From: a virus
Taxonomy: Duplodnaviria; Caudoviricetes
IMG/VR virus record: IMGVR_UViG_3300044453_000313
Location: 1-53,823 of that record
DNA length: 53,823 bases
Reading direction: 5' to 3' (one strand)
Within the stretch, counting starts at the first letter, position 1, and the number at the start of each line of letters is the position of its first letter. A program made the translations under genes and the position numbers. This document shows, one piece after another, positions 7,050 to 53,823 of the stretch. The notes beneath the pieces were generated by a model, which was given only the letters and a program-made list of their open reading frames with translations, was not told where the DNA came from and made no database searches.

Positions 7050-7661
7050 CTACCAGCGGCAGGCTTGCCGGAGCGGCTTGATGGCGTCTCTCAGGCCGCC
7101 GATGTTGAACGTCAGCGTCAGCGGGTCCTCACGGTAGGGGAAGAGGCGCAAGGTCAGCTTTTCTCTGTCAAACATGCGTTCGATAAAAGGCACCGCGCTT
7201 TCGGCGGTCCAAAGCCCGAGGGCGGAATTGTCGTTCGATTCTGCCATCGCGACGGAAAGGGCGGGCTCCTTGTCCAGCCGAAACGCGACTTCCCCGGTGC
7301 GCGGTTCCATGTCGGCGGGAAACAGGCAGCTTGTGTGCAGGATGACGGCGGTCTCGCCTTCCACGCACCTGATGGTGAACATGATGCGCGTGCTCCGGTT
7401 CCAGCCGCAGCGCGTCACCCGGTCGGAGGCGAGGGCCATGAAAACGCTCTCGCTGTCGTCCATCGGGGAGCGTTCAAGGCGCGTTGCCCATTCCAGCGGC
7501 GGGCCTTCCTGCTTTTCCGCCTGGTCGGAAACATACCTGAAGCAAAGTTTCCGCTGGATTTCATTCGTCATGGCCGCGCAGTCCTCAGCCGTGAAGTCCG
7601 CTGGCATGGCTGGCCCGGCGGCCAGTGCCGTCAGGATAAAGGCAAAAGCCCGGCGCTTCAT
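7050..7661 (-). CDS. Exported TagO/VasI-family (T6SS-associated) protein, moron
   Basis: Signal peptide; C...RKLC, SPMDDS, IRC, ALGLW...VPFI and C-terminal GL..AIKPLRQACRW motifs. Confidence 0.7.
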   Translation of the reverse strand: MKRRAFAFILTALAAGPAMPADFTAEDCAAMTNEIQRKLCFRYVSDQAEKQEGPPLEWATRLERSPMDDSESVFMALASDRVTRCGWNRSTRIMFTIRCVEGETAVILHTSCLFPADMEPRTGEVAFRLDKEPALSVAMAESNDNSALGLWTAESAVPFIERMFDREKLTLRLFPYREDPLTLTFNIGGLRDAIKPLRQACRW

Positions 7662-7732
7662 TTTTCCGTTCCCCGTTGCGACGGCTGCATCACAGCACCT
7701 TCGCGCGCAGAAGTCGAGCGGAGGCATGCCGC

Positions 7733-8110
7733 ATGAGCCTGCCGCGCCGCACGACCGAAAAGATCCGCCATGCGCTGAAGATCGCCACCAAGCGCACCGT
7801 GCAGGCCTGCGGCAGTCAGGACAGCGCCGCATCGATCACCCGTGTCGGCCCGAAAACCCTTTCCGACTATGGCAACACCGGCGAGCCGCGGCATGCGGAA
7901 CTGTTCATGCCGGTCGATGTGCTCGCGGACCTGATCATCGATTGCCGCGAAGGCGGCGAAGTCGCCCCGCTGCTTGAAACGCTCTGCGAACTTGCCGGAG
8001 GCCGGTTTGTGCCGGTCACCGGCAGCGGCCGGCGCGACCTGGTGGAAACGATCATGCGGGCCGCCGTGCAACTGCATGGCCTCGAAGAAACTCAGGATGC
8101 CGCCGAATGA
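7733..8110 (+). CDS. CII-like phage regulatory protein
   Basis: HTH-like TLSDYGN...FMPVDV; LCELAGGRFVP; position after cro. Confidence 0.65.
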   Translation: MSLPRRTTEKIRHALKIATKRTVQACGSQDSAASITRVGPKTLSDYGNTGEPRHAELFMPVDVLADLIIDCREGGEVAPLLETLCELAGGRFVPVTGSGRRDLVETIMRAAVQLHGLEETQDAAE

Positions 8111-8346: not shown

Positions 8347-8807
8347 GCCGCGCGCAGGACCGCGAAATCGCCCGGCTGCGCTCGGCGCTCTACCAGCGCG
8401 ACGCCCGCATCCTGGAGCTTGAGGCGCTGCTGGCGCGCGAGGGCGGTTATCCGGCCGCCTTCGGCCTGACGCACATGCAGACGCGCATGCTGGATTTCCT
8501 GATGCGCAAGGCCGGCGTGAAGCGCCGCGCCATGCACGCCTTTCTCTATGGCGCAACCGCGCAGAATGCGCCGTCCGAAAAGACGGTCAGCGTCCAGATT
8601 TACCTCATGCGCCGCAAGCTGGCGCCGCACGGCATCACCATCGAGCGCAGCGGCGGCAGCGGCTGGAGCCTGCCGGCACCGGCCAAGGCCCGCCTGCGCG
8701 AGGCCATCGACCGCGAGCTTTCCGCCTGTGCCCTTGCCCGTTCCGGCGAGGCCTCGCAGGACGAGGGCGGGGCCTTTGAACCATCTTCAACGGGAGCAAA
8801 TCAATGA
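8343..8807 (+). CDS. OmpR/CtrA-type winged-helix DNA-binding protein without a receiver domain
   Basis: LT..QTRMLDFL...LYG...PSEKTVSVQIYLMRRKL...I....GSGW. Confidence 0.75.
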   Translation: MSRAQDREIARLRSALYQRDARILELEALLAREGGYPAAFGLTHMQTRMLDFLMRKAGVKRRAMHAFLYGATAQNAPSEKTVSVQIYLMRRKLAPHGITIERSGGSGWSLPAPAKARLREAIDRELSACALARSGEASQDEGGAFEPSSTGANQ

Positions 8808-9388
8808 GCCTTGCAGAGGATATCTTTCTCGGCCGGTTGGTCTGGGCGGACCTGACGGCGGCGCAAAAGCGCGATGCCGTACACGACCAACTGGCCGAGG
8901 GCCGCACGGTGGACGAGGCGGCAGGCCTGCTGTCCGTCATCTATGGCCCGATCGGCGCCAATGCGGTGCGGGGCGTCATCAGCCGGCACGGCCTGGACGA
9001 GGACCTGCAGGTGATCGAGGCGCGGCGGATCCGCGCGGCCGACGAACTCAGGGCACGCTCGGCCCGCCAGCGCAGGCAGCGGCCGGTTCTGCTGCCGCGC
9101 CCCGAGCCGCTGCCGCAAATGCCTGCGGTGCGTCTCGGCGATGCACGCAAGAAAAAGGGCATCACGCTGCTCGACCTGAAGGCCTGGCATTGCCGGATGC
9201 CCACATGGGACAAGAACGCGGACGGGCTGGACAACAAGTTCTACTGCGGCAACCGCGCCGAAGAGGGCCGCAGCTACTGCGCCGGCTGCCTGGAGCGCAC
9301 CACGATAAGCCGGGCCGAGCGGCGGCGGAGCCAAGAAAGCGCACTGCTTGCCTTCCCGAAAAAGGGGAGGTTCCGCCGGTGGAAATGA
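8804..9388 (+). CDS. GcrA-family cell-cycle regulator-like protein
   Basis: C-terminal ITLLDL...CRMP...FYCG.....RSYC motif; N-terminal NAVRGVISR helix. Confidence 0.75.
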   Translation: MSLAEDIFLGRLVWADLTAAQKRDAVHDQLAEGRTVDEAAGLLSVIYGPIGANAVRGVISRHGLDEDLQVIEARRIRAADELRARSARQRRQRPVLLPRPEPLPQMPAVRLGDARKKKGITLLDLKAWHCRMPTWDKNADGLDNKFYCGNRAEEGRSYCAGCLERTTISRAERRRSQESALLAFPKKGRFRRWK

Positions 9389-11518: not shown

Positions 11519-11904
11519 ACCCCGATTACGCACACCTTCTGAAAGGCGCGACGCTGGATTATGCGCGGCTCGGTCTAGCCATCAAGGCGGTGATTGCTGA
11601 ACGCGGCTGCACCCTGCAGGACGTTCAGGCGCAGACGCGCGTGTCGCGCGCCTCCGTCAGCCGGGCGACGGCGGGCATCGAGATTTCCACCGGGCCGCTG
11701 CTGCTGCTGTGCATTTGGGCGGACCTGAACCCGTTTGAACTTCTGCGGCCGGTGGAAATGCCCGAACCCGCGACCGGACTTGCCGGAGACGTGGGCGATT
11801 ACAGGGTGTTTCACGGGCGACAGGGCGTGAAACTACCTGAAAAACAAAGGCAATTGCGGACGAGCAGCCTTGGCAGCCGAAAGGGGAGGGCGCGCCATGC
11901 GTGA
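11515..11904 (+). CDS. XRE-type HTH protein
   Basis: TLQDVQAQTRVSRASVSRA. Confidence 0.65.
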   Translation: MNPDYAHLLKGATLDYARLGLAIKAVIAERGCTLQDVQAQTRVSRASVSRATAGIEISTGPLLLLCIWADLNPFELLRPVEMPEPATGLAGDVGDYRVFHGRQGVKLPEKQRQLRTSSLGSRKGRARHA

Positions 11905-13234
11905 AACCTTCCTCGACGGGCGCGTGACGCTGCTGTGCGGCGACAGCCTGGACCTTCTGAAAGACCTGCCGGACGACAGCATCGACAGTTGCGTCACCGA
12001 CGCGCCGTATCATCTGACCAGCATCGTCAACCGCTATGGATCTCCGGATTCCAAGGTCACGGTGAACAAGCCGGAAAGTGCTGTCTACAAGCGGCAGGCT
12101 ACCGGCTTCATGGGCAAGCAATGGGACGGTGGCGACATTGCCTTCAAGCCGGATATCTGGCGTGCGGTCTATCGCGTCCTGAAGCCCGGCGGCTATCTGC
12201 TTGCCTTCGCTTCGACGCGCGGGTTCGGGCGGATGTCGCATGCCATTGAGACGGCCGGGTTCATTCAGCATCCGCTGATTGCCTATCTGTTCGATCCGGA
12301 CCCGGCGACGGCCGCTTTTCTGGCCGCCCTTTCCGAAGAGCAGTTCGCGGCGCTGGCGCGGCTGGTCGACCTTCAGGACGGCGGCCTGCTGGCCTGGCTG
12401 TTCGGGTCCGGCTTTCCGAAGGCGACCCGCATTCAGGCGGAAGGCTTCGACGGCTGGCGCTACGGCGGGCAGAGCCTGAAGCCGGCCATTGAACCGGTGT
12501 TCATGGGACAGAAGCCTTTCAGCGAGAAGAACGGCACGGCGAACATTCTGAAGCACGGCACGGGTGGTGTGAACATCGACGGGTGCCGTGTTGGCACCGA
12601 TAAGGTTGGTTGGTCTGGGGCTGCTGCTGGCAGTGAAGACAGCACGCAGTCCGGCGGCAGAAACTACCGTATGCGTGGTGGCGAGGCGCGGCCAGTTGAT
12701 GGCCGGTGGCCCGCGAACGTGATCCACGACGGCAGTGCGGCGGTGCTGGCGGGCTTTCCGGAGGCGCCGGGACAGCAGGGCGTGGTCACCGGCGGGGAAC
12801 CGACCGGGGCCGGTTTCAGCGGCGATGTTTATGCTTTCCGCACCAGCGACCGGAAAGCCGCCATTCCGCGCCCGGATTCCGGTTCGGCCGCCCGCTTTTT
12901 CTATTCCGCCAAGGCCGACGCCCAAGACCGCATCGGCTCCAGACACCCGACTGTCAAGCCCGTCGACCTGATGCGCTACCTGGTGCGGCTGGTGACGCCG
13001 CCGGGCGGCACGGTGCTGGACTGTTTTGCAGGCACCGGGACGACCGGCGAGGCGGCATTTTACGAGGGCTTCAACGCGGTGCTGTGCGAGCGCGAGCCGG
13101 ACTATCAGGCCGATATTCGCCGCCGCATGGCGCTTTGTGTTGCAGGACCTGACGAGCGCCGGCGCGAAAGCGTCAAGGCCCGGCAGGGCGGTCAGCCGGA
13201 AGACTTCGGGCCGCTGTTTTCAACCCAGCCATAG
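11897..13234 (+). CDS. DNA adenine-N6/cytosine-N4 methyltransferase (beta class)
   Basis: CGDSL, VTDAPY (DPPY variant), RVLKPGG, HPTVKP, VLDCFAGTGTT. Confidence 0.9.
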   Translation: MRETFLDGRVTLLCGDSLDLLKDLPDDSIDSCVTDAPYHLTSIVNRYGSPDSKVTVNKPESAVYKRQATGFMGKQWDGGDIAFKPDIWRAVYRVLKPGGYLLAFASTRGFGRMSHAIETAGFIQHPLIAYLFDPDPATAAFLAALSEEQFAALARLVDLQDGGLLAWLFGSGFPKATRIQAEGFDGWRYGGQSLKPAIEPVFMGQKPFSEKNGTANILKHGTGGVNIDGCRVGTDKVGWSGAAAGSEDSTQSGGRNYRMRGGEARPVDGRWPANVIHDGSAAVLAGFPEAPGQQGVVTGGEPTGAGFSGDVYAFRTSDRKAAIPRPDSGSAARFFYSAKADAQDRIGSRHPTVKPVDLMRYLVRLVTPPGGTVLDCFAGTGTTGEAAFYEGFNAVLCEREPDYQADIRRRMALCVAGPDERRRESVKARQGGQPEDFGPLFSTQP

Positions 13235-17055: not shown

Positions 17056-17414
17056 TGGCGGTCTATGTCGATGATATGCAGGCGTCGTTCGGCCGCATGG
17101 TCATGTGTCACATGTGGGCCGACACGCTGCCGGAACTGCTGATGATGGCCGACATGATCGGCGTTGCGCGCAAATGGCTGCAACAGCCGCCGAAGGCCTC
17201 GTGGGTTCACTTCGATATCGCGAAGTCAAAGCGCGCCCTGGCGGTGCGCTACGGCGCCATTGAAACCGACCGGTTCGGCCCGGTGGAACACACGGCCCGG
17301 CTTCTTCTGAAATCCGACAACCCGGAAACCGTCGCCCGTGGCAGCCGGCAGCTTGAGGCCGTCGCAGCATGCCGCGCACGGCGCGCGGGCGAAGCGCAGG
17401 GGAGCCTGATCTGA
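17055..17414 (+). CDS. DUF4031 family protein
   Basis: MAVYVDD...MCHMWADT..EL..MA..IG...WLQ...HFDI. Confidence 0.8.
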   Translation: MAVYVDDMQASFGRMVMCHMWADTLPELLMMADMIGVARKWLQQPPKASWVHFDIAKSKRALAVRYGAIETDRFGPVEHTARLLLKSDNPETVARGSRQLEAVAACRARRAGEAQGSLI

Positions 17415-18745
17415 TGCTTTACGGCAGCGTCTGTTCCGGCATCGAGGCGGCGACGGTGGCCTGGCATCCGCTCGGCTGGAAACCGGCGTTTTTTTCCGAA
17501 ATCGAGCCGTTCCCCTGTGCCGTGCTGGCGCATCACTATCCGGACATTCCGAACCACGGCGACATGACGCAATTCGAAAGGTGGCCCGCACATGCAATTC
17601 GGCTTCTCGTTGGAGGAACCCCCTGTCAGGACTATTCCGTCGCGGGACTGCGTCTCGGCATGGCTGGCGGCCGGGGTCAGCTCACCCTTGTCTTTGTCGA
17701 AATTCTTGGCAGATACCGCCCCGCCTGGTTTGTCTGGGAGAACGTCCCCGGTGTTCTTTCAAGCAACGAGGGACGAGACTTCGGCCGCTTTCTGGGCGAA
17801 CTCACGGGCCACGGCATCGAGCCGCCCGCCGGCGGCTGGAAAAACGCCGGCATCGTCACCGGCGGACCCGACAGCTACGGCGTCGCCTGGCGTGTGCTTG
17901 ACGCTCAGTTTACCCGAACACGCCTCTTCCCTGCCGCCGTCCCGCAACGGCGGCGCCGTGTGTTCGTTGTTGGATATCTTGGAGACTGGCGCCCCGCCGC
18001 GGCGGTACTTCTTGACGGCGAAAGCCTGCGCGGGGATCCTCCGCCGCGCCGGGAACAGGGGCAAGGAATTGCCGGAACTCTTAATGCACGCTCTGAGGGC
18101 GGTGGCGGACTTGGAACCGATTTCGAGCTAGGCGGCGGCCTGGTGCCGGAGGTTGCGAACCCGCTGACGGCCCGCATGCACAAGGGCGTCAACACGACCA
18201 TGGACGAGGGGCAAACCATGGTCGCGCACACGCTCAAGGCCGAGGGATTCGACGCCTCGGAGGACGGCAGCGGACACGCGGCGGTCGCTTACGGTTTGCT
18301 GTCGGATGCCAGCAGGGACGGAAGCGCCAAGACCCCAAGCGCGGACGCGGAAGGGCGGGTCCGCCTGCGCGATCCCGGCCTCGGTGTTTCGGAAGGCATC
18401 AGCCCGACCTTGGACAGTTCGGGGCCGCATGCCGTCGCAAGCGCCCTGCAGGTCCGCCGCCTGACCCCGCGCGAATGCGAGCGCCTGCAGGCCTTCCCCG
18501 ACGATTACACCCGCATTCCGGGCGCGGCCTCCGGCGGCTGGCGCGACATCGACGAGGACGAGGACCTTGACGAACTGCGCACCCTCGGCCTGCCGCTGAA
18601 ACTCAGGGGCAACCGCTGGCGGGTGCAGGACCCCGACGGCCCCCGTTACAAGGCGCTCGGCAATTCCATGGCCGTCAACGTCATGCAGTTGCTCGGCGAG
18701 CGCATCGACATGGTCGACCGGCTGATCAGAGAGGGCAAGTCATGA
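17414..18745 (+). CDS. DNA (cytosine-5) methyltransferase
   Basis: SVCSGIE (motif I), GGTPCQ (IV), WENV (VI), QRRRRVF (VIII), RRLTPRECERLQ (IX), ALGNS (X). Confidence 0.95.
   Translation: MLYGSVCSGIEAATVAWHPLGWKPAFFSEIEPFPCAVLAHHYPDIPNHGDMTQFERWPAHAIRLLVGGTPCQDYSVAGLRLGMAGGRGQLTLVFVEILGRYRPAWFVWENVPGVLSSNEGRDFGRFLGELTGHGIEPPAGGWKNAGIVTGGPDSYGVAWRVLDAQFTRTRLFPAAVPQRRRRVFVVGYLGDWRPAAAVLLDGESLRGDPPPRREQGQGIAGTLNARSEGGGGLGTDFELGGGLVPEVANPLTARMHKGVNTTMDEGQTMVAHTLKAEGFDASEDGSGHAAVAYGLLSDASRDGSAKTPSADAEGRVRLRDPGLGVSEGISPTLDSSGPHAVASALQVRRLTPRECERLQAFPDDYTRIPGAASGGWRDIDEDEDLDELRTLGLPLKLRGNRWRVQDPDGPRYKALGNSMAVNVMQLLGERIDMVDRLIREGKS
17592..18131 (+). CDS. Alternative-frame ORF nested in the C5 methyltransferase (M.EcoHK31I beta-like)
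   Basis: CSLLDILETG..PRRYFLTAKACAGILRRA..RGKELPE.L motif in a second frame; start uncertain. Confidence 0.5.
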   Translation: MQFGFSLEEPPVRTIPSRDCVSAWLAAGVSSPLSLSKFLADTAPPGLSGRTSPVFFQATRDETSAAFWANSRATASSRPPAAGKTPASSPADPTATASPGVCLTLSLPEHASSLPPSRNGGAVCSLLDILETGAPPRRYFLTAKACAGILRRAGNRGKELPELLMHALRAVADLEPISS

Positions 18746-19551
18746 ACCCGTACCTGCTGCCCGACGGCCATGTCAGCATCGCTTTCAGCGGCGGGCGCAC
18801 GAGCGCTTTCATGCTGCACCGGATCCTGGAAGCGAACGGCGGCCTGCCGGACCGCTGCGAGGTCACATTCCAGAACACCGGCCGCGAAATGCCGCAGACG
18901 CTCGATTTCGTGGCCGAGGTCGGGCGCCGCTGGGGCGTCGAAATCACCTGGCTCGAATACCGGGCGGAAAAGCCGCTTTTCGCGGTTGTCGGCTATCAGG
19001 GCGCCAGCCGCAACGGCGAACCCTTCGAGGCGCTGATCCGGCGCAAGAAGGCGGTGCCGAACGTCGCGCAGAAATGGTGTTCGGCCGAACTCAAGAGCCG
19101 GACCGCAAAGCGTTACCTGGTTGCCAAGGGCTGGCGGCGCTGGACCAATTTTGTCGGTTTCCGCGCGGACGAACCGCACCGGGACGCCTTTCCCGACAAC
19201 CGCGCGACCGCGGCACTGCCGCTGCGGCTGGCAGGAGTGACGCAGGACGATGTCGCCGCCTTCTGGCGCGCGCAGCCCTTCGACCTTGCCCTGCCGGTCG
19301 TCAACGGCGTCACCATCGGCGGAAACTGCGACGGCTGTTTCCTGAAGTCCGAACAGTACATTGCCGCGTTCTCGCGCGATTTCCCGGCCCTGGCGGGCTG
19401 GTGGGAACGCCTTGAGGACTTCACCGGCCACACGTTTTCCAAGCGCTACAGCCGGCGCGACCTGCGCGAGTTCATCGAGCGGCAGGGCGACTGGATGCTG
19501 TCGGCCGAGGGTGCGCTTTGCCAGAAGGAAGAGGGGGAGTGCTGCACATGA
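18742..19551 (+). CDS. PAPS-reductase / adenine-nucleotide alpha-hydrolase family protein
   Basis: PP-loop AFSGGRTS, FQNTGRE, CSAELK, GFRADE, NCDGCFLK. Confidence 0.8.
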   Translation: MNPYLLPDGHVSIAFSGGRTSAFMLHRILEANGGLPDRCEVTFQNTGREMPQTLDFVAEVGRRWGVEITWLEYRAEKPLFAVVGYQGASRNGEPFEALIRRKKAVPNVAQKWCSAELKSRTAKRYLVAKGWRRWTNFVGFRADEPHRDAFPDNRATAALPLRLAGVTQDDVAAFWRAQPFDLALPVVNGVTIGGNCDGCFLKSEQYIAAFSRDFPALAGWWERLEDFTGHTFSKRYSRRDLREFIERQGDWMLSAEGALCQKEEGECCT

Positions 19552-47124: not shown

Positions 47125-47931
47125 ATGAAACTTGTCCCCGACTGGCGGCAGGTCGTCGCCACTTCCTTGAGCTTCTGGATGCAGGCGGCGGGCCTGCTTC
47201 TGCTCGTCCTGATCGAATTGCGCTTTGCGGTGACCGGTGCCGACACCGACCCGGTGTTCGCCTGGTGGCTGGGGGTCGGCTTCCTGCTCGCCGGCCTTGC
47301 CGGGCGCCTCTTCCAGCAGGGCCTTTCGCCGTGGCGCGAGTGGCTGCGGCTCGGCGCCGTCGCCGTGCTCGTTCTCCTGGCGGCGCTGGCGCTGGCATCC
47401 ACCGCCCGCGCGGCGGCCGAACCGGGCGCTGCCGTGTCGGCCGCGGCCGGCAAGGTGGACATGGCGCTGCCCTACAGCGAGGCCGATGCGCTCAACGAGG
47501 CCGTGCCGTTCATCGCGCAGGAGGAAGGGCTGCGGACAAAGGCCTATCTCGACATCGTCGGGGTGCCGACGATCTGCTATGGCTCGACGCGCGGCGTGCG
47601 GCTCGGCATGGAAAAGACCCGGGCGGAGTGCCTGGACCTGCTGCGCAGCGAGGTCGCCGAATACCGGCACGGCCTGCACCGCTATATCAAGCCCGCGGCC
47701 CGGCTCTACCATCTGACCCCGAAACGGGATGCGGCCTATACCTCGACCGCCTTCAACTGCGGGATAGGCGCTATCGGCAAGAGCACCGCCGTCCGCCGGC
47801 TGAACGCCGGCGACATCAAGGGCGGGTGCGAGGCGCTGACCTGGTGGAACAAGGCGGGCGGGCGCGTGGTGCGCGGCCTCGTCGCCCGGCGCACCCGCGA
47901 GCGGGCGCTGTGCCTGGACGGCGTCAGGTGA
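47125..47931 (+). CDS. GH24 lysozyme endolysin with N-terminal multi-TM extension
   Basis: EEG...AYLDIVGVPTICYG catalytic triad, FNCG, GLVARRTRE; three hydrophobic segments upstream. Confidence 0.9.
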   Translation: MKLVPDWRQVVATSLSFWMQAAGLLLLVLIELRFAVTGADTDPVFAWWLGVGFLLAGLAGRLFQQGLSPWREWLRLGAVAVLVLLAALALASTARAAAEPGAAVSAAAGKVDMALPYSEADALNEAVPFIAQEEGLRTKAYLDIVGVPTICYGSTRGVRLGMEKTRAECLDLLRSEVAEYRHGLHRYIKPAARLYHLTPKRDAAYTSTAFNCGIGAIGKSTAVRRLNAGDIKGGCEALTWWNKAGGRVVRGLVARRTRERALCLDGVR

Positions 47932-48890: not shown

Positions 48891-49381
48891 GACGCCGCGT
48901 TGCCGCATCCTTCACCTGCCGGCCGCGGCTGAAGGAAATGCACTGGTTCCTGGCAATCATGGGGCTATTTGTGCTGATGGCCGGGACGGCGCAGTTCAAC
49001 CGGCTGCTGCCGGCGTCGCACTGGCTGGAGGTGACCGGGCTGCATGTTCATGACACGGCGGCCGGCACCAGCCCGAAAATGCGGGTCGACCGGGTGATCC
49101 ACCGGCCGTTTCAGGCGGACTGGATTGTGACGGTGATGCGCGAAAACTGGTCGGGCAACGGTTTCTCGACCTTCTGCACCGCGCGCGGCGGCAACGACTA
49201 CCGGCCGGGCGCGCAACTGCCGGACACGCTGGACCTCGACTGGTGGACGTGGCCGGTGCGCTGCGATCTGCCGCCGGGGCGCTACCGGGTCAAGACGCTG
49301 TGGCGCCTGACCCTGCCGGAGAACGTCGTCAAGGACGTGCGGGTGACGTCGAACATCTTCAGCGTTTGGCGTCCGGATTAG
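48887..49381 (+). CDS. Membrane-anchored hypothetical protein
   Basis: TM helix then beta domain with CDLPPGRY. Confidence 0.6.
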   Translation: MRRRVAASFTCRPRLKEMHWFLAIMGLFVLMAGTAQFNRLLPASHWLEVTGLHVHDTAAGTSPKMRVDRVIHRPFQADWIVTVMRENWSGNGFSTFCTARGGNDYRPGAQLPDTLDLDWWTWPVRCDLPPGRYRVKTLWRLTLPENVVKDVRVTSNIFSVWRPD

Positions 49382-49520
49382 CGGCCAGTTCCTTCATGTG
49401 GCGATCGAAGGCAACCCGGAAACGGGCGGCCCAAAGCGCGGCCTGGTGCGGAAAGATCCACACCCAGAAAATCACCGCGACAATCGCGGCCATGATCATC
49501 GAGACGGCAAAATCAAGCAT
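49359..49520 (-). CDS. 53-aa single-pass membrane protein (not in the ORF track)
   Basis: GAGG RBS; MLDFAVSMIMAAIVAVIFWVWIFPHQAALWAARFRVAFDRHMKELAANPDAKR. Confidence 0.5.
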   Translation of the reverse strand: MLDFAVSMIMAAIVAVIFWVWIFPHQAALWAARFRVAFDRHMKELAANPDAKR

Positions 49521-49544
49521 TGTCTTACCTCTTCTGAATCAATC

Positions 49545-49579
49545 GGGCGCCGGTTTCACACCCGGCGCCCTTTTTATTT
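49545..49579 (+). terminator. Intrinsic terminator ending the late operon
   Basis: GGGCGCCGG-N8-CCGGCGCCC followed by TTTTTATTT. Confidence 0.75.
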
Positions 49580-49646
49580 GAGGTTGCGTTAACCTTACGC
49601 CCGCAACCGTGGCAAGGCAACCGGAAAGGCGAGGGGCTTTCCGTGA

Positions 49647-49898
49647 TCAGATTGTTCGAGTAAATTCACGCGCCTCAAAAACGGGCTCTGAGCGGACTTC
49701 AACCATAAAGCGTTTTGTTTGATGACCAAGCCGCACGCTCGTATGGAGATCGCGCCATTCGACGTCCTTGCGGCACCGTTCGCTTGCCGCCTTTATCGCA
49801 GCATCATCGAAGCCGTCAGCGAGATACGAATGGCTTTCGTTATATTCCGGTCCACGTTCGCCAAGGTCCTGGAACCAAACTTCAAAGATTTTAGCCAT
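49647..49898 (-). CDS. Small hypothetical protein
   Basis: ATG 49898 with purine-rich RBS. Confidence 0.55.
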   Translation of the reverse strand: MAKIFEVWFQDLGERGPEYNESHSYLADGFDDAAIKAASERCRKDVEWRDLHTSVRLGHQTKRFMVEVRSEPVFEAREFTRTI

Positions 49899-49914
49899 AG
49901 CCGCGCCTTTCCGT

Positions 49915-50130
49915 TCAGTCTTGCAAAAGATCTCTCGCCATGGCCTCGGCCAGACATTCGGGCTTGTAGTCGTGAGCGTGCTTGGCAAGCCATGCAACGC
50001 AGCCTTGGACAGCTTCCCTGCGTCCTAATTCAGCAAGCTTCACTATTTCGTCGAAGGCCTCGACGGCATCGGGATTTATCTGCGCGACCAGCACCCTTGC
50101 ATAGGCCACGTGGTCTTTGGGATAGCGCAT
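49915..50130 (-). CDS. Small hypothetical protein
   Basis: GAGGAGG RBS. Confidence 0.55.
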   Translation of the reverse strand: MRYPKDHVAYARVLVAQINPDAVEAFDEIVKLAELGRREAVQGCVAWLAKHAHDYKPECLAEAMARDLLQD

Positions 50131-50151
50131 GATCCTGCCTCCTCGGGCCGG

Positions 50152-50340
50152 TTAAAACAGCGGTGCCGGGAACCGCGCGGAAATGTATTCCGTGATGCGG
50201 TGCAGGGCTTCGGGGTCGAGGCCTTCGCACTGACCTTTTTCGAGAATCGTCAGCATCGCCGAAAGCACACGAATCTCGGGGTCCGGATTGTCCCAAAGCA
50301 CCTCCATGCAAGGAGGGGTGTATGCGGCGTTCTCGGTCAT
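50152..50340 (-). CDS. Small hypothetical protein
   Basis: GAAGGAAG RBS; DPEIRVLSAM...RITEYISARF. Confidence 0.55.
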   Translation of the reverse strand: MTENAAYTPPCMEVLWDNPDPEIRVLSAMLTILEKGQCEGLDPEALHRITEYISARFPAPLF

Positions 50341-50509
50341 TGGGGCTTCCTTCGAAAACTAGTGGCTGGGTGGCCCTGCCCGGGTGCTTCTACTGCTCAA
50401 TCACAGCGCCTGCAGCTTCCCCGTATTCATCACACATGCACCGCTCGACATGCGCTCCACCGTGTTGATTTTGGCGGAAATCACACCGCGCCACGGCTCG
50501 AATGGGTTG

Positions 50510-50605
50510 TCGCCTGTAAATGTATTTACAATTATAGAACTGTCAATAACTTTATTGCATTGTATTGCCTCGTATTGACATTTGCAGACTCACCCGGCAT
50601 ATGGC
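50510..50605. promoter_or_regulatory. AT-rich divergent promoter region
   Basis: TTGACA on both strands; near-palindrome TGTAAATGTATTTACA at 50515-50530. Confidence 0.5.
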
Positions 50606-50610
50606 AAAGC

Positions 50611-50799
50611 ATGGAAATGGGCCGCCAAAAGAAAACGGTCAGCTACTCGCTCGACCCCGACCTGCTGAAGGACTTTGACGCGTGGATCGCCGCGCAGCCG
50701 GTGCCGCCGACAAAGACCGCGGCGGTCGAGGCCGCAATGCGCAAGCTGATGGCCGATTATCCCGTTTCCGAACCAGACAAGGGCAAGAAGGCGAACTGA
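50611..50799 (+). CDS. Ribbon-helix-helix regulator
   Basis: KKTVSYSLDPDLLKDFDAW.....TKTAAVEAAMRK. Confidence 0.7.
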   Translation: MEMGRQKKTVSYSLDPDLLKDFDAWIAAQPVPPTKTAAVEAAMRKLMADYPVSEPDKGKKAN

Positions 50800-50928
50800 C
50801 GCCTGCCTGCCGTTCAGCGGTCGCGGCCCGGGTGTCTCCGCCGGGCGTAAGCCGATAAGGCAGTGCAACTGCCAAAGGGCCGGGGGTTCCCGGCCGCCGC
50901 TGTTCCGATCGAGGAAGGGCCTTGGAAG

Positions 50929-51246
50929 ATGGGAACGCCGCTATATGACCGGATGCTCGCCTATGACTATGGCGATCAGGAACGCGCTGATCTGATGCGC
51001 GAGGTCTGGGAGGGGACACCCTTCATGACAAACTGCAACAGTGGTTCCATAGCGTCAGACCGCGAGCGGGAAATCAACGACTGGTGCCGCGAACACTTCG
51101 GCGACGAGGCCTGGCCGATCCACGGCCGGCCGGGCAATTGGCAGCGCGGCGGCGCGACCGTTTACGGCTGGACCTGGTACGGATTCAGGACCGCCGAAAT
51201 GCTCAAGCAGTTCGAAGCCGCCTGGGAATGCAAAGACGAGAACTGA
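50929..51246 (+). CDS. Hypothetical Trp-rich protein
   Basis: DWCREHFG...W...YGFRT.E....F. Confidence 0.6.
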   Translation: MGTPLYDRMLAYDYGDQERADLMREVWEGTPFMTNCNSGSIASDREREINDWCREHFGDEAWPIHGRPGNWQRGGATVYGWTWYGFRTAEMLKQFEAAWECKDEN

Positions 51247-51258
51247 GGAGACGAGACG

Positions 51259-51690
51259 ATGGACATGACGCATTCCTTTTCTCCGGAATCCGACCCGATC
51301 ATGCCGGAAATCAGCGATGAACGGCTTGTCGAGTTGGCAAAGACGTTTCCGCTTATTCACCCGGATAAATCCGGCGAGTATCGGATTGTTGATCTTTCCC
51401 CGCATGACATGAAGACGCTCCGCAACACGTCTTGCATATGGAGCCCGAAACTCGGAAGTGCTGTCGCCATCGGCGCAGAACAGCGCCGGGTACACTTCTA
51501 TGTCTCGTGCGGTTATCACGGCCTCTTTAAGCCGTCTGTCGCGGAGGTGCTGTCGCAAGCGCCGATTGATGATCTTGAGCGTAGCGGGTTCGATGCCTTC
51601 TATATCGATGACCATGTCGAAATTCTAAGGTCTGGCGGGTTCCAAAAGGCGACGGCGTGTTTCGTCCGTCTTTGGAAAAAGAACTCGTAA
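51259..51690 (+). CDS. Hypothetical protein
   Basis: GAGGAG RBS; GYHGLFKPSVAEVLSQ motif. Confidence 0.65.
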   Translation: MDMTHSFSPESDPIMPEISDERLVELAKTFPLIHPDKSGEYRIVDLSPHDMKTLRNTSCIWSPKLGSAVAIGAEQRRVHFYVSCGYHGLFKPSVAEVLSQAPIDDLERSGFDAFYIDDHVEILRSGGFQKATACFVRLWKKNS

Positions 51691-51708
51691 ACAGGGGAGT
51701 CGGCGCCG

Positions 51709-51888
51709 ATGACCAGAATTGAATTTCGGCTGTGTCATCTGAAGTCATACGGGCGCAAACTCCGTTACGAGTTCAAGCGCGTGCAGCTTGTTAGAGCAGC
51801 CGAAATTCAGGTCCGCAAAGGTCGCGGCAGTCTTCCGCTTCCGAGCAGCGGTTATTGGAAAAAACCGAAATTTGTTTGTGACTCATAA
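51709..51888 (+). CDS. 59-aa basic hypothetical protein (not in the ORF track)
   Basis: GGGGAG RBS; fills the gap between neighbouring genes. Confidence 0.35.
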   Translation: MTRIEFRLCHLKSYGRKLRYEFKRVQLVRAAEIQVRKGRGSLPLPSSGYWKKPKFVCDS

Positions 51889-51897
51889 GGAGCGGAC

Positions 51898-52578
51898 ATG
51901 CGGCAGAAAATCCGGTTGCTGAATTATGACGACGCCCGCGAAGAGTTTCAAAAGCAGGTGCTGGAAGAGTTGCAGCTTGAAGAGCGGATGACGGCAGACG
52001 AAATCCTGCAGGCGGCGGCGGTCATTCTTGCAAGGTCCGACTGCTCGGATCCGCCGGCGGCGATAGCGGAAGCCGCCGCCGAAATCTACATGACCCGTCT
52101 GGACGACCTGGTCAACGCCTCGGTTCTGGAAGTTCTGACCGTGTGGATTTCGGAACTCGATTTGTGTGTTTTCCTCAGAGGTTCGGACAATCCGGAAACA
52201 GCGGCGGCGCCGCACATAGAGTTCATGGTCAACTCTGACCTTAATTCGCTGATCAGGCTGCCGCTAGAAAGTTTGCTGCTGGAACATGCCGAGCCGGAGG
52301 ACCTGCCGGGCCTGGCCTCGGCGCTGCGCCGCCTGGCGGACCGCATCGAAGGGAAGCCGGACCGCCGCCAAAGGTTCACCTACAGCGAACCGCCTGCGCC
52401 TGGCGACGTTGAAACTGTGTGCGCTCTGGTTCGTAGTACACTTGAATCGTTTGAGCCTGAAGTTTCCGTCCGGAACTACTTCCGCAGTCACTACGGGTCT
52501 TTCGGTCACAAAGATCGAATGGAAATCATCGGCCGGCAGATTGTCGTGAGCGGCGGCGTGCTTGAAGATCAGCCGTGA
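51898..52578 (+). CDS. Hypothetical acidic protein
   Basis: TAAGGAG RBS; 226 aa. Confidence 0.65.
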   Translation: MRQKIRLLNYDDAREEFQKQVLEELQLEERMTADEILQAAAVILARSDCSDPPAAIAEAAAEIYMTRLDDLVNASVLEVLTVWISELDLCVFLRGSDNPETAAAPHIEFMVNSDLNSLIRLPLESLLLEHAEPEDLPGLASALRRLADRIEGKPDRRQRFTYSEPPAPGDVETVCALVRSTLESFEPEVSVRNYFRSHYGSFGHKDRMEIIGRQIVVSGGVLEDQP

Positions 52579-52611
52579 TGAAACTGGAGCGGTGGTTTGA
52601 GGATCCTGGTC

Positions 52612-52700
52612 GGGGTCAGTAACAAGTCCCGGGTGGAAACATGGAAACAAGTTCCTGGTGGAAACAAGACTGACGGGTTCGATTCCCGTCGACCTCGCTA
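52612..52700 (+). ncRNA. tRNA-like element (acceptor stem and T-arm, no canonical D or anticodon arm)
   Basis: GGGGTC/GACCTC stem; GACGGG-TTCGATT-CCCGTC T-arm; ends in GCTA. Confidence 0.4.
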
Positions 52701-52731
52701 AGCATAAGAAGCGATTTCCTCATTTTCGGGA

Positions 52732-52760
52732 TTGACACATAGGGCCAATGGCCCTATGTT
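52732..52760 (+). promoter_or_regulatory. Sigma70 promoter with overlapping perfect operator palindrome
   Basis: TTGACA-17 nt-TATGTT; ACATAGGGCCA-A-TGGCCCTATGT at 52737-52759. Confidence 0.8.
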
Positions 52761-52767
52761 GTGAAGG

Positions 52768-53141
52768 TCAACAGGGCAATGAAGCCCGCCGAAAATGGAG
52801 ACGAAAATGACCTTCAGCAAATGGCTCGACACCTTCCTTTCCGAAAAGGGCATCGACCTGGAAAAGACCCTGACCGTGGAAGGCGCTTCCGGCCCGAACT
52901 ACATGCCGGTTGAAATCATCGTTCAGGCCATCAAGGCGGCATCCGCCGCCGAGCAACAGCAAATCAAGACGATGTTTGTCCGCATCGATTTCGTCAACGG
53001 CGACGTTCTCGACTTCCTCAAGCACCTCGGCAAGGCCATCGCGATCTGAGCGACAGGCCGCAGGAGGGTCCGGCACTGCCGGACCTTCCCCGCACCATTC
53101 AACAGGGCAAGGACGCCCGCCAGCACCGGAGACGAAAATGA
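52768..53141 (+). repeat. Duplicated 43-nt leader/RBS module (52768-52810 and 53099-53141)
   Basis: TCAACAGGGCAA..GCCCGCC..GGAGACGAAAATGA, 36/43 identical. Confidence 0.85.
52807..53049 (+). CDS. Small protein, anti-defence candidate
   Basis: 80 aa; GGAG RBS; first gene after the operator-containing promoter. Confidence 0.7.
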   Translation: MTFSKWLDTFLSEKGIDLEKTLTVEGASGPNYMPVEIIVQAIKAASAAEQQQIKTMFVRIDFVNGDVLDFLKHLGKAIAI

Positions 53142-53605
53142 ATACTTTCACCCAGCCGACCGACCGCGCATCCGCCATCGCCTTTCTCGCCGAACTGCAG
53201 GCCAAGGGCCTTTCCTATCATCCCGACGACTGCGCCCGCGAGTGCCTTGCAGGCCACGGTCTGACCGCCGGGGCGCTGGACGAAATCAGCGCCAACATGG
53301 CCGCGACCTTCGCCTTTGTGGATCCCTATATCGTCGGGATGGGCCTGTCGCACGGCTTCACGCCCGCCGACGAGGACCAGATCGCCGAATGCGCCGACCT
53401 TTACGAGGGCGAGGACATCGCCTTTTTCTGGCAGTGGAACGGCGTCGTCTTTGCGCAGTTTCGGGACGGCGACGCGGATTATCTGGTGATCCTCCTGAGC
53501 GACGAGCACCGCCTGCAGTGGTTTCATGAAGTCAAGGACGTCATCCGCAGGTTCTGCGAAGAGGAAGGCGTCGAGATTGTCGAAGACGAACAGGGGAGCA
53601 ACTGA
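53138..53605 (+). CDS. Highly acidic protein, anti-defence/DNA-mimic candidate
   Basis: 155 aa; about 30 D/E versus 8 K/R by hand count; GGAG RBS. Confidence 0.7.
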   Translation: MNTFTQPTDRASAIAFLAELQAKGLSYHPDDCARECLAGHGLTAGALDEISANMAATFAFVDPYIVGMGLSHGFTPADEDQIAECADLYEGEDIAFFWQWNGVVFAQFRDGDADYLVILLSDEHRLQWFHEVKDVIRRFCEEEGVEIVEDEQGSN

Positions 53606-53607
53606 TC

Positions 53608-53823
53608 ATGACGCCGACAGAGTTCAAGGAGGCTCGGCGCAAGCTGGGCCTTTCCGCCGCCGATCTTGGCGACATCCTGAACACGGATCCGCGCACCATT
53701 CGCCGCTGGGAGGACGAAAGCGGCACGCGCCCGCCGAATCCGATTGCCTGCCGCGTGCTGGAATGGATGCTTGCCGGATACCGTCCGCCGCAGTTCCCGG
53801 CAAACGACCCCGGCAAGGCCTAG
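53608..53823 (+). CDS. Small XRE-HTH protein (Aca-like position)
   Basis: MTPTEFKEARRKLGLS..DLGDILNTDPRTIRRWE; last gene of the operon. Confidence 0.85.
   Translation: MTPTEFKEARRKLGLSAADLGDILNTDPRTIRRWEDESGTRPPNPIACRVLEWMLAGYRPPQFPANDPGKA

Follow-up and report, generated by a model that had tools for sequence, protein, structure and literature searches.

At the right end of IMG/VR record IMGVR_UViG_3300044453_000313, a phage genome of 53,823 nucleotides (nt) that was analysed over its whole length and is called the window here, three genes form an operon that closes with a small helix-turn-helix (HTH) regulator. We propose, with a probability of roughly 60%, that this is an Aca-type (anti-CRISPR-associated) self-repressed counter-defence operon of a temperate alphaproteobacterial phage, with its first two genes, ORF1 and ORF2, as candidate inhibitors. 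That the HTH protein acts as the autorepressor of the operon is, judging from sequence comparison, very probable. The initial annotation of the window had read the layout as that of an anti-CRISPR (acr) operon with a terminal aca gene. This reading is supported by the anatomy of the operon, the link between an operator and the HTH family, the variability of the genes between the two (the cargo) and the presence of the counter-defence genes for AcrIC5 and ArdC in sister operons; covariation in a leader sequence and a relative among the known Aca proteins, Aca3, add to it.

The promoter TTGACA-17-TATGTT, the 11-bp perfect inverted repeat within its spacer, the 80-amino-acid (aa) ORF, the very acidic 155-aa ORF (isoelectric point (pI) 4.1, net charge -22) and the 71-aa HTH gene all lie where the initial annotation had located them (Table 1). 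The three genes are on one strand with gaps of 88 nt and 2 nt, the HTH start being 2 nt past the ORF2 stop, and no promoter-like site was found between ORF1, ORF2 and HTH. The promoter ahead of ORF1 fits the consensus at 10 of 12 positions; alone it is not rare, as 3 promoter-like sites occur in 49000-53823 compared with 1.6 +/- 1.2 in shuffled sequence. The arms of the inverted repeat (52737-52747 and 52749-52759) are 11 nt each, 100% complementary and separated by 1 nt. The repeat was found only once in the record, even when 3 mismatches were allowed, and none of 100 shuffles gave a match. Because the operator is present once in the phage, the regulator appears to control only its own operon there.

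Table 1. Positions of the operon and of other features of the window (SD, Shine-Dalgarno sequence).
Feature	Position	Strand	Description
Sigma-70-type promoter	52732-52760	+	-35 TTGACA (52732-52737), 17-nt spacer, -10 TATGTT (52755-52760)
Operator	52737-52759	.	Perfect inverted repeat; conserved core 52739-52757 ATAGGGCCAATGGCCCTAT; family consensus ATAGnnCCAnTGGnnCTAT
Leader copy 1	52768-52810	+	GGGC (52774-52777)-AATGAA-GCCC (52784-52787), GCC, SD GGAG (52796-52799), ATG 52807
ORF1	52807-53049	+	80 aa, pI 5.2, phrog_6004 (function unassigned)
Intercistronic stem-loop	53063-53089	+	12-bp stem, 3-nt loop, -27.9 kcal/mol, without a U tract
Leader copy 2	53099-53141	+	GGGC (53105-53108)-AAGGAC-GCCC (53115-53118), SD GGAG (53127-53130), ATG 53138
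ORF2	53138-53605	+	155 aa, two-domain
HTH regulator	53608-53823	+	71 aa, XRE/MqsA-type, Aca3-like, predicted autorepressor
Direct repeats	52621-52666	+	Two 21-nt repeats, AACAAGTCCCGGGTGGAAACA and AACAAGTTCCTGGTGGAAACA, 25 nt start to start, 90% identity
tRNA-type 3' fragment	52673-52699	+	T-arm and 3' acceptor strand; unique in the record
Tyrosine integrase	1-1074	minus	
Endolysin	47125-47928		

The strongest evidence against a chance palindrome is comparative, namely the recurrence of the operator in the same -35/-10 register upstream of HTH homologues. An alignment of the HTH family retrieved 59 genome loci, of which 41 (L003-L043) were kept and 18 weak or partial ones (L044-L061) were excluded from the counts. 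Together with the window and 80 loci on viral contigs, the 41 genome loci make up the 122 sources used below, or 121 loci when the window is left aside. The operator of the window re-emerged repeatedly in a palindrome search upstream of each HTH homologue gene. A scan with ATAGnnCCAnTGGnnCTAT, which allowed at most 2 mismatches at 14 fixed positions and required a palindromic middle, placed the operator upstream of the HTH gene in 25 of the 42 sources formed by the genome loci and the window (461,713 nt); within the genome set 23 sites lie within 1.2 kb of the HTH gene and two at -1404 and -1532. Elsewhere in the 461,713 nt, and in 20 shuffles, the scan found none. In the viral contigs with HTH homologues the operator stands upstream in 20 of 80 loci and never at or after the HTH gene, which brings the combined count to 45 of 122 sources upstream of the HTH gene and none elsewhere. 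When 25 promoters of the genome set were aligned, the operator always fell between -35 and -10 in a fixed register, a TTGACA-like -35 ending one base before ATAG and the right-hand TAT of the operator starting the -10. The central dinucleotide varies among loci (GG, CG, GC, GA and TG); as the scan took only sites with a complementary mirror position, the central symmetry is a condition of the scan and not a result. Because it recurs upstream of homologues, the palindrome is tied to the HTH family far more strongly than by the window alone, and the operator looks like the site of a dimeric repressor.

The operon contains a further repeated element that the initial annotation did not mention, a leader of 43 nt that stands once before ORF1 and once before ORF2, the two copies being 84% identical. 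The first copy makes up the predicted whole 5' untranslated region (UTR) of ORF1, beginning at about the predicted transcription start. Both copies align well within a set of 24 leaders, in which 95.8% of the cells of a 4-bp helix are paired compared with 88.2% in column shuffles; none of 500 shuffles reached the observed value, and sliding the partner columns lowered the pairing to 24-46%. At the pair of columns 7 and 18 we counted GC 18 times, AU 4 times and CG twice with no broken pair, and the pair 8-17 includes two G-U cells. Across the 122 sources, such hairpins number 110 within 2.6 kb ahead of HTH genes (0.41 per kb) and 45 elsewhere (0.06 per kb), an approximately sevenfold higher density. 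An SD and a start codon follow within 40 nt after 99 of the 110 upstream hairpins, and 16 sources have at least two hairpins, each before a gene. A role as RNA is argued for by the position after the predicted start, by the repeats inside promoterless stretches of operons and by the G-U pairs. By analogy with the 5' UTR RNA motifs bound by Aca2 and Aca1, as described in the accessible part of PMC13551039, a second, post-transcriptional layer of control is likely.

We also considered the leader as a short upstream ORF, as its loop is often AATGAA, and rejected this: several loci lack the ATG (AACGAA and AATAGA loops), and its reading frame with respect to the following gene is not conserved. 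As a side observation, the central dinucleotide of the operator partly pairs with the type of hairpin stem (GG with GGGC, GA with GGAC in 2 of 3 loci and TG with GCGC in 2 of 3 loci), which could reflect one protein reading both elements or shared descent alone.

The regulator belongs to a widespread family with 135 related clusters in a large protein collection, nearly all of 64-75 aa and many 60-88% identical. These relatives come from Rhodobacteraceae/Paracoccaceae, Pseudovibrio, Roseibium, Jiella, Aureimonas and similar genera; Devosia is among the sources of the genome loci, and phages carry the family as well. The match of the HTH protein to Pfam HTH_3 (PF01381) is marginal (24.5 bits for a cut-off of 23, residues 7-35); in PHROGs it matches phrog_14076 and phrog_7950 (1.7e-10). 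When the family profile was compared with all PDB sequences, the best match was Aca3 (9vt3_A, E 8.9e-6, 28.7 bits, profile positions 2-48 of 70), and the next matches, to antitoxin-type and phage-repressor HTH domains, followed at E >=3e-3, about three orders of magnitude behind. A homodimer prediction for the HTH protein scored 0.39, the mark being 0.42. According to the available text of PMC9410906, an MqsA-type HTH is listed in Table 1 as fold neighbour of Aca3, in ten Aca families the core promoter is near-consensus, contains a conserved inverted repeat and is repressed by the cognate Aca, and Aca3 represses the promoter of its own operon. Since the present family is related to Aca3 only distantly and occurs in different hosts, we would call it Aca3-like and not Aca3. 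It is best regarded as a probable new Aca-like family whose operon carries plausible but unproven inhibitors. Operons of the acr-aca kind are already known; the regulator family, the operator and the leader were found undescribed in the literature searched, the supplements of the Aca papers (homologue and motif lists) excepted, and the search returned no literature on anti-CRISPR-associated proteins in Rhodobacteraceae.

The initial annotation had proposed to inspect the neighbourhoods of HTH homologues, and there the HTH gene is conserved and the genes between operator and HTH vary. A crude ORF call with a filter on the GC content of third codon positions (GC3), which misses some genes including ORF1, yielded 110 cargo ORFs in 70 families from 78 operons with an operator or a leader, many of them with a pI of 4-5. 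The sole cargo of locus L022 is a 64-aa acidic homologue of AcrIC5 (PF22147, E 1.9e-19, 69.9 bits for a cut-off of 27), a protein that was first found adjoining aca1 in Pseudomonas, as given in the accessible text of PMC7913775. In locus L012 the first cargo gene, right after operator and leader, encodes ArdC (PF08401 ArdcN, E 3.7e-40) with a zincin peptidase (MPTase-PolyVal); it matches the anti-restriction protein family phrog_7245 at 1.7e-87, and between it and the HTH gene lie genes for two small proteins. ArdC-like cargo is present in three loci altogether (L012, L177 and L201). A Pfam scan of one representative per larger cargo family matched 4 of 44, one each to LPD29, DUF4942, DUF932 and GP88, with the LPD29 and GP88 families comprising two loci each. 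The accessible part of PMC13551039 describes LPD29 and restriction-modification (R-M) genes inside Aca-controlled operons. Cargo with an assignable name thus falls within the counter-defence repertoire carried by mobile elements, but most of the cargo has no assignable name.

The cargo seen most frequently is a protein of 54-73 aa with a helical N-terminal part (LADDKMRAEIAKL...) and a C-terminal membrane helix (for example 5837-6001 in L024), which tblastn detected in 19 of 121 loci; in the genome loci the most frequent layout has it as the only cargo. The gene ends in a stop codon that overlaps the start of the HTH gene, and its product corresponds to phrog_6330 (function unassigned). Directly upstream of two HTH operons we observed an MmeI-type R-M gene (L004, 1891-5472) and an Eco29kI R-M pair (L036, 3535-5627), so that defence genes stand beside putative anti-defence genes in these loci.

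ORF2 (pI 4.14, 30 D+E and 8 K+R residues, net charge -22 concentrated in the C-terminal half) has a helical N-domain of about residues 3-70 with the motif YHPDD (YHP[DE]D...DCL in the family), which is found alone or fused to various other domains, and a very acidic alpha/beta C-domain of residues 73-155. It is rare, with 2 clusters among 5.8 billion proteins; an exhaustive search gave 24 representatives at E<=1e-3, most of which match the N-terminal 70 residues only, and searches of viral and genome contigs with single-protein patterns found nothing. All full-length homologues that were placed, in L018 (48%) and L166 (64%), are sole cargo directly upstream of this HTH and behind the same operator. 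Comparison with these two loci suggests that the window arose by insertion of ORF1, the intercistronic stem-loop and the second leader copy between the promoter with its leader and the resident ORF2. The stem-loop, which separates ORF1 from the second leader copy and was likewise absent from the initial annotation, may be an element of RNA processing or stability, or a scar of cassette insertion. The AlphaFold2 model of ORF2 is confident and shows two domains, with a predicted local distance difference test (pLDDT) value of 92.3. Foldseek gave no match to it in the PDB at E<=0.001, the best Z in a wide VIA-align search was 5.4, a value too low to indicate more than a commonly shared arrangement, and in the ESM Atlas there was no usable feature match, the structure matches all having template modelling (TM) scores <0.5 by query.

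ORF1 is much more widespread. It matches phrog_6004 with residues 1-79 on profile positions 2-84 of 88 (E 4.2e-29), and its start was set at ATG 52807 as in its homologues, which do not use the upstream in-frame ATG at 52795. Homologues form 35 clusters and occur in at least 200 IMG/VR stretches; the contigs bearing them range from a few kilobases (several <6 kb) to 356 kb, and the gene is common in uncultured phages. The predicted fold comprises a helix, a beta-hairpin and three helices (pLDDT 93.7), and a Foldseek search of the PDB returned no match at E<=0.001. Among 80 viral loci with ORF1 homologues no conserved partner was found; the largest neighbour family reached 8 of 80, and no functional lead emerged. 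One homologue, in L001 (5500-9031), lies in a longer operon behind TTGACA-17-TATATT in which another repeated leader hairpin (GATGC-AATCAA-GCATC and GATGC-AATTAG-GCATC) stands before two genes. The ORF1 homologue is followed there by five ORFs without an above-cut-off Pfam match, and the last gene encodes a 75-aa HTH_3 protein; two ORFs show weak sub-threshold matches to Bromo_TP (E 3.9e-4) and DNA_pol3_beta_2 (E 5.8e-3). This operon looks like an analogous cassette system with another regulator.

Taken together, these elements suggest a simple mode of action. The near-consensus sigma-70 promoter would fire when the DNA enters a repressor-free cell and give a burst of ORF1, ORF2 and HTH. We infer that the HTH protein, presumably as a dimer, would then bind the palindromic operator and shut the promoter in negative autoregulation, because the operator fills the spacer between -35 and -10 and supplies the first bases of the -10. 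The GGGC-AAUGAA-GCCC hairpin lies approximately 8-10 nt before the SD of each cargo gene, and the inferred binding of the HTH protein to this RNA may throttle translation, in the manner of Aca2 and Aca1. The cargo would be exchangeable, with ORF2 as the resident cargo of a sub-lineage and ORF1 together with its own leader as a later insertion. In its fullest form the picture comprises a dual DNA/RNA regulator that reads both ATAGnnCCAnTGGnnCTAT and the hairpin of each cistron, a leader that serves as a joint for cassette swapping, ORF2 as an inhibitor of a host defence of the nucleic-acid-mimic type with a new fold and ORF1 as a second, widely spread inhibitor; we put this combination forward as tentative and somewhat doubtful. 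The idea of the leader as a recombination joint is hinted at by the apparent insertion of ORF1 and the second leader copy ahead of ORF2.

The record as a whole is the genome of a temperate siphovirus-type phage according to PHROG and Pfam scans, with genes for the small and large terminase, portal, major head protein, major tail protein and tape measure, a replication initiator and a Q-like antiterminator. Its early region holds two DNA methyltransferases and a PAPS-reductase (DndC-like) gene (11870-13231, 17369-18742 and 18742-19548), possibly further counter-restriction functions. Also encoded in this region, at 7053-7832 and 8804-9385, are a protein of the VasI type (type VI secretion associated family, E 3.4e-10) and a cell-cycle regulator resembling GcrA; the GcrA-like gene points to an alphaproteobacterial host, which is taken to be of marine type. 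Three ORFs that could not be annotated (50863-52578) precede the operon, which occupies the extreme right end. A comparison of 52580-53823 with phage and plasmid collections by DNA similarity gave no match, and a scan of the whole record with Rfam at gathering thresholds returned nothing.

Just upstream, the segment 52621-52699 looks like an attachment (att) site. The tRNA-type fragment, 33 nt upstream of the -35 of the operon, may form the att core; ARAGORN found no complete tRNA around it. When 52500-53200 was scanned with Rfam at E<=10, which gave sub-threshold matches only, its first part (52673-52689) matched the T-arm of tmRNA at E 0.012, below the gathering score. The direct repeats immediately 5' of the fragment are possibly arm-type sites of a recombinase and not part of the operon. 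L013 and L018 have whole tRNA genes ahead of the operator, at distances of 170 and 366 nt, and in L013, L163 and L168 the HTH and integrase genes are convergent neighbours. The record begins exactly at the integrase stop codon (1-3) and ends exactly at the HTH stop codon (53821-53823). Contigs from 4 DNA sequencing runs match the stretch without differences, and in three of them the contig runs 330 nt past its end; no RNA run containing the stretch was listed. Given the att-like site, the position of the record ends at the two stop codons, the convergent HTH and integrase genes and the upstream tRNA genes, we favour a circular genome opened between HTH and the integrase gene (int), with the prophage order attL, operon, int. 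Should the record instead show a provirus in the order of the host DNA, the operon would be located immediately outside attR. Under either topology the operon is at the prophage edge, and the conclusions on the operon are independent of this choice. In a circular record, transcription that starts at the strong promoter and continues past the operon would run antisense to int.

Several findings weigh against a counter-defence operon under Aca-type control. At up to 2 mismatches the operator went undetected in 77 of 122 sources, and the match to Aca3 is distant, with about 17 identical residues in 47 columns compared with the profile consensus. The hairpin has 4 bp only, and palindrome-like covariation cannot separate an RNA structure from a DNA site. 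Genes with a recognised counter-defence name are present in only about 5 of the 78 operons, and the commonest cargo, the small membrane protein, is not a typical anti-CRISPR protein (Acr) and would suit other roles, such as that of a toxin or a part in exclusion or in the control of lysis. For ORF1 and ORF2, comparisons with Pfam, PHROGs functions, NCBIfam, PADLOC and PDB sequences gave no match to a known Acr or anti-defence family, and both are without a clear structural relative. In the 80 viral loci with ORF1 homologues neither this HTH nor this operator was found in any case, so the association of ORF1 with the system rests on this single operon. The proposal of the initial annotation that both are new anti-CRISPR or anti-defence candidates with an Aca-like repressor is supported at the level of the family; an anti-defence role of ORF1 and ORF2 is plausible by association only.

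The same facts can be read in terms of a self-regulated accessory (moron) cassette, in which the HTH protein would still be the autorepressor, the cargo would act in superinfection exclusion, host takeover, prophage-encoded defence or lysogenic conversion, and AcrIC5 and ArdC would be two of many cargo kinds in a general-purpose slot. We consider this, the main rival, unlikely, though by no means negligible. The frequency of the small membrane-anchored protein (19 of 121 loci, phrog_6330) and the 40 of 44 cargo representatives without a Pfam match are what such a slot would give, and the operons adjoin R-M genes (L004 and L036) and prophage edges with lysins and integrases, where morons gather; moreover, Aca-like genes often occur without acr genes, as stated in the available text of PMC9410906. 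However, the cargo that can be named is that of counter-defence elements and polyvalent proteins (AcrIC5, ArdC in 3 loci, LPD29, DUF4942 and DUF932), no cargo gene matched a known defence protein, PADLOC giving 0 matches for ORF1, ORF2 and the two cargo representatives submitted to it, and a strong promoter under tight autorepression is the design expected for proteins that are needed at entry.

Two further explanations fit the data poorly. A type II toxin-antitoxin (TA)-like module, with the upstream gene or genes as toxin and the HTH protein as antitoxin and autorepressor in the order of higBA and mqsRA, would account for a gene in the toxin position followed by HTH after 2 nt, and the recurrent small membrane protein might act as a membrane toxin. 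No match to a toxin family was obtained for ORF1 or ORF2, however, and to our knowledge a net charge of -22, as in ORF2, is unlike known type II toxins. The HTH protein is weakly similar to the MqsA family (TIGR03830) and to an Xre-like antitoxin (PF20432, E 1.4e-4), and among the PDB matches are HigA2 and antitoxins of the MbcA type (E from about 3e-3 to 2e-2), yet both family matches fall below the curated cut-offs (28 bits for a cut-off of 61.8, and 22.6 for 25.8). The former covers the HTH part alone (profile positions 65-103), a comparison with TIGR03830 in NCBIfam found no CxxC domain or zinc-ribbon N-domain, and the 71-aa protein has no extra toxin-binding domain. A similarity between Aca proteins and antitoxins has been remarked on in the available text of PMC9410906, but a cognate pair would not tolerate the exchange of cargo among unrelated families, AcrIC5 and ArdC included, and we regard a TA module as improbable. 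Very improbable is a control of integration or excision, in which the HTH protein would be a recombination directionality factor or integrase regulator and the palindrome part of the att architecture. The module does lie 33 nt downstream of the tRNA-like att-type fragment, would, in a circular record, adjoin int at its 3' end, is represented by convergent HTH-integrase pairs in the three loci named above, and shows a weak NCBIfam match to the Xer recombination activation factor family (18.8 bits for a cut-off of 70). But with five query recombinases a recombinase was detectable in 8 of 121 HTH loci only, many loci adjoin lysins, terminases, R-M genes or primases instead, and the operator is always in the promoter of the HTH operon itself, in a fixed -35/-10 register, whatever surrounds it.

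Anti-defence proteins have mostly been found by guilt-by-association with a few Aca regulators from gamma- and betaproteobacteria and Firmicutes. Our results define an Aca-like regulator family for alphaproteobacteria and their phages, with an operator consensus and a leader motif that can be searched for. These two markers gathered approximately 78 operons with about 70 cargo families, mostly unknown small acidic proteins, and AcrIC5 and ArdC serve as internal positive controls for them. If the markers hold, they provide a list of candidate inhibitors that includes ORF1 (phrog_6004) and ORF2, and the family would be a third or fourth independent case of combined control at the promoter and the 5' UTR.

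Compared with known systems, the family is closest to Aca3 of Neisseria meningitidis, which is likewise a small XRE/MqsA-type HTH protein (70-76 aa, and 71 aa here) whose gene comes last in a short operon with a strong promoter. It differs from Aca3 in its hosts, which are alphaproteobacteria and phages and not Neisseria, and in its cargo, which consists of AcrIC5-like, ArdC, membrane and unknown proteins with no type II-C Acrs seen. In addition, the accessible part of PMC13551039 reports that covariation is too low for an RNA motif in aca3 operons, whereas the present family shows one. With AcrIC5 and ArdC, ORF1 shares the slot, as the first gene after operator and leader in L022, L012 and the window, whereas neither ORF1 nor ORF2 has detectable sequence similarity to either (no match to PF22147 or PF08401 at E<=1). 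Type II TA operons with XRE, MqsA or HigA antitoxins resemble the operon in gene order, in the HTH autoregulation at a promoter palindrome that is predicted here and in weak HTH similarity, but differ in that here there is no toxin homologue, the cargo is acidic and freely exchanged, and all matches are sub-cut-off. In its layout for control the operon resembles those of Aca2 (acrIF8-aca2 of Pectobacterium phage ZF40) and Aca1, where an inverted repeat also overlaps the promoter, a conserved 5' UTR hairpin adjoins the ribosome-binding site and the regulator is last in the operon, as described in the accessible part of PMC13551039. Aca2, with its DUF1870 and dimerisation domain and about 125 aa, belongs to an unrelated protein family, and RNA binding, shown for Aca2 and Aca1, may by analogy extend to the present one. 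Unlike in these systems, the leader with hairpin and SD is repeated here before internal cistrons, and it may therefore also mark the boundaries of cassettes.

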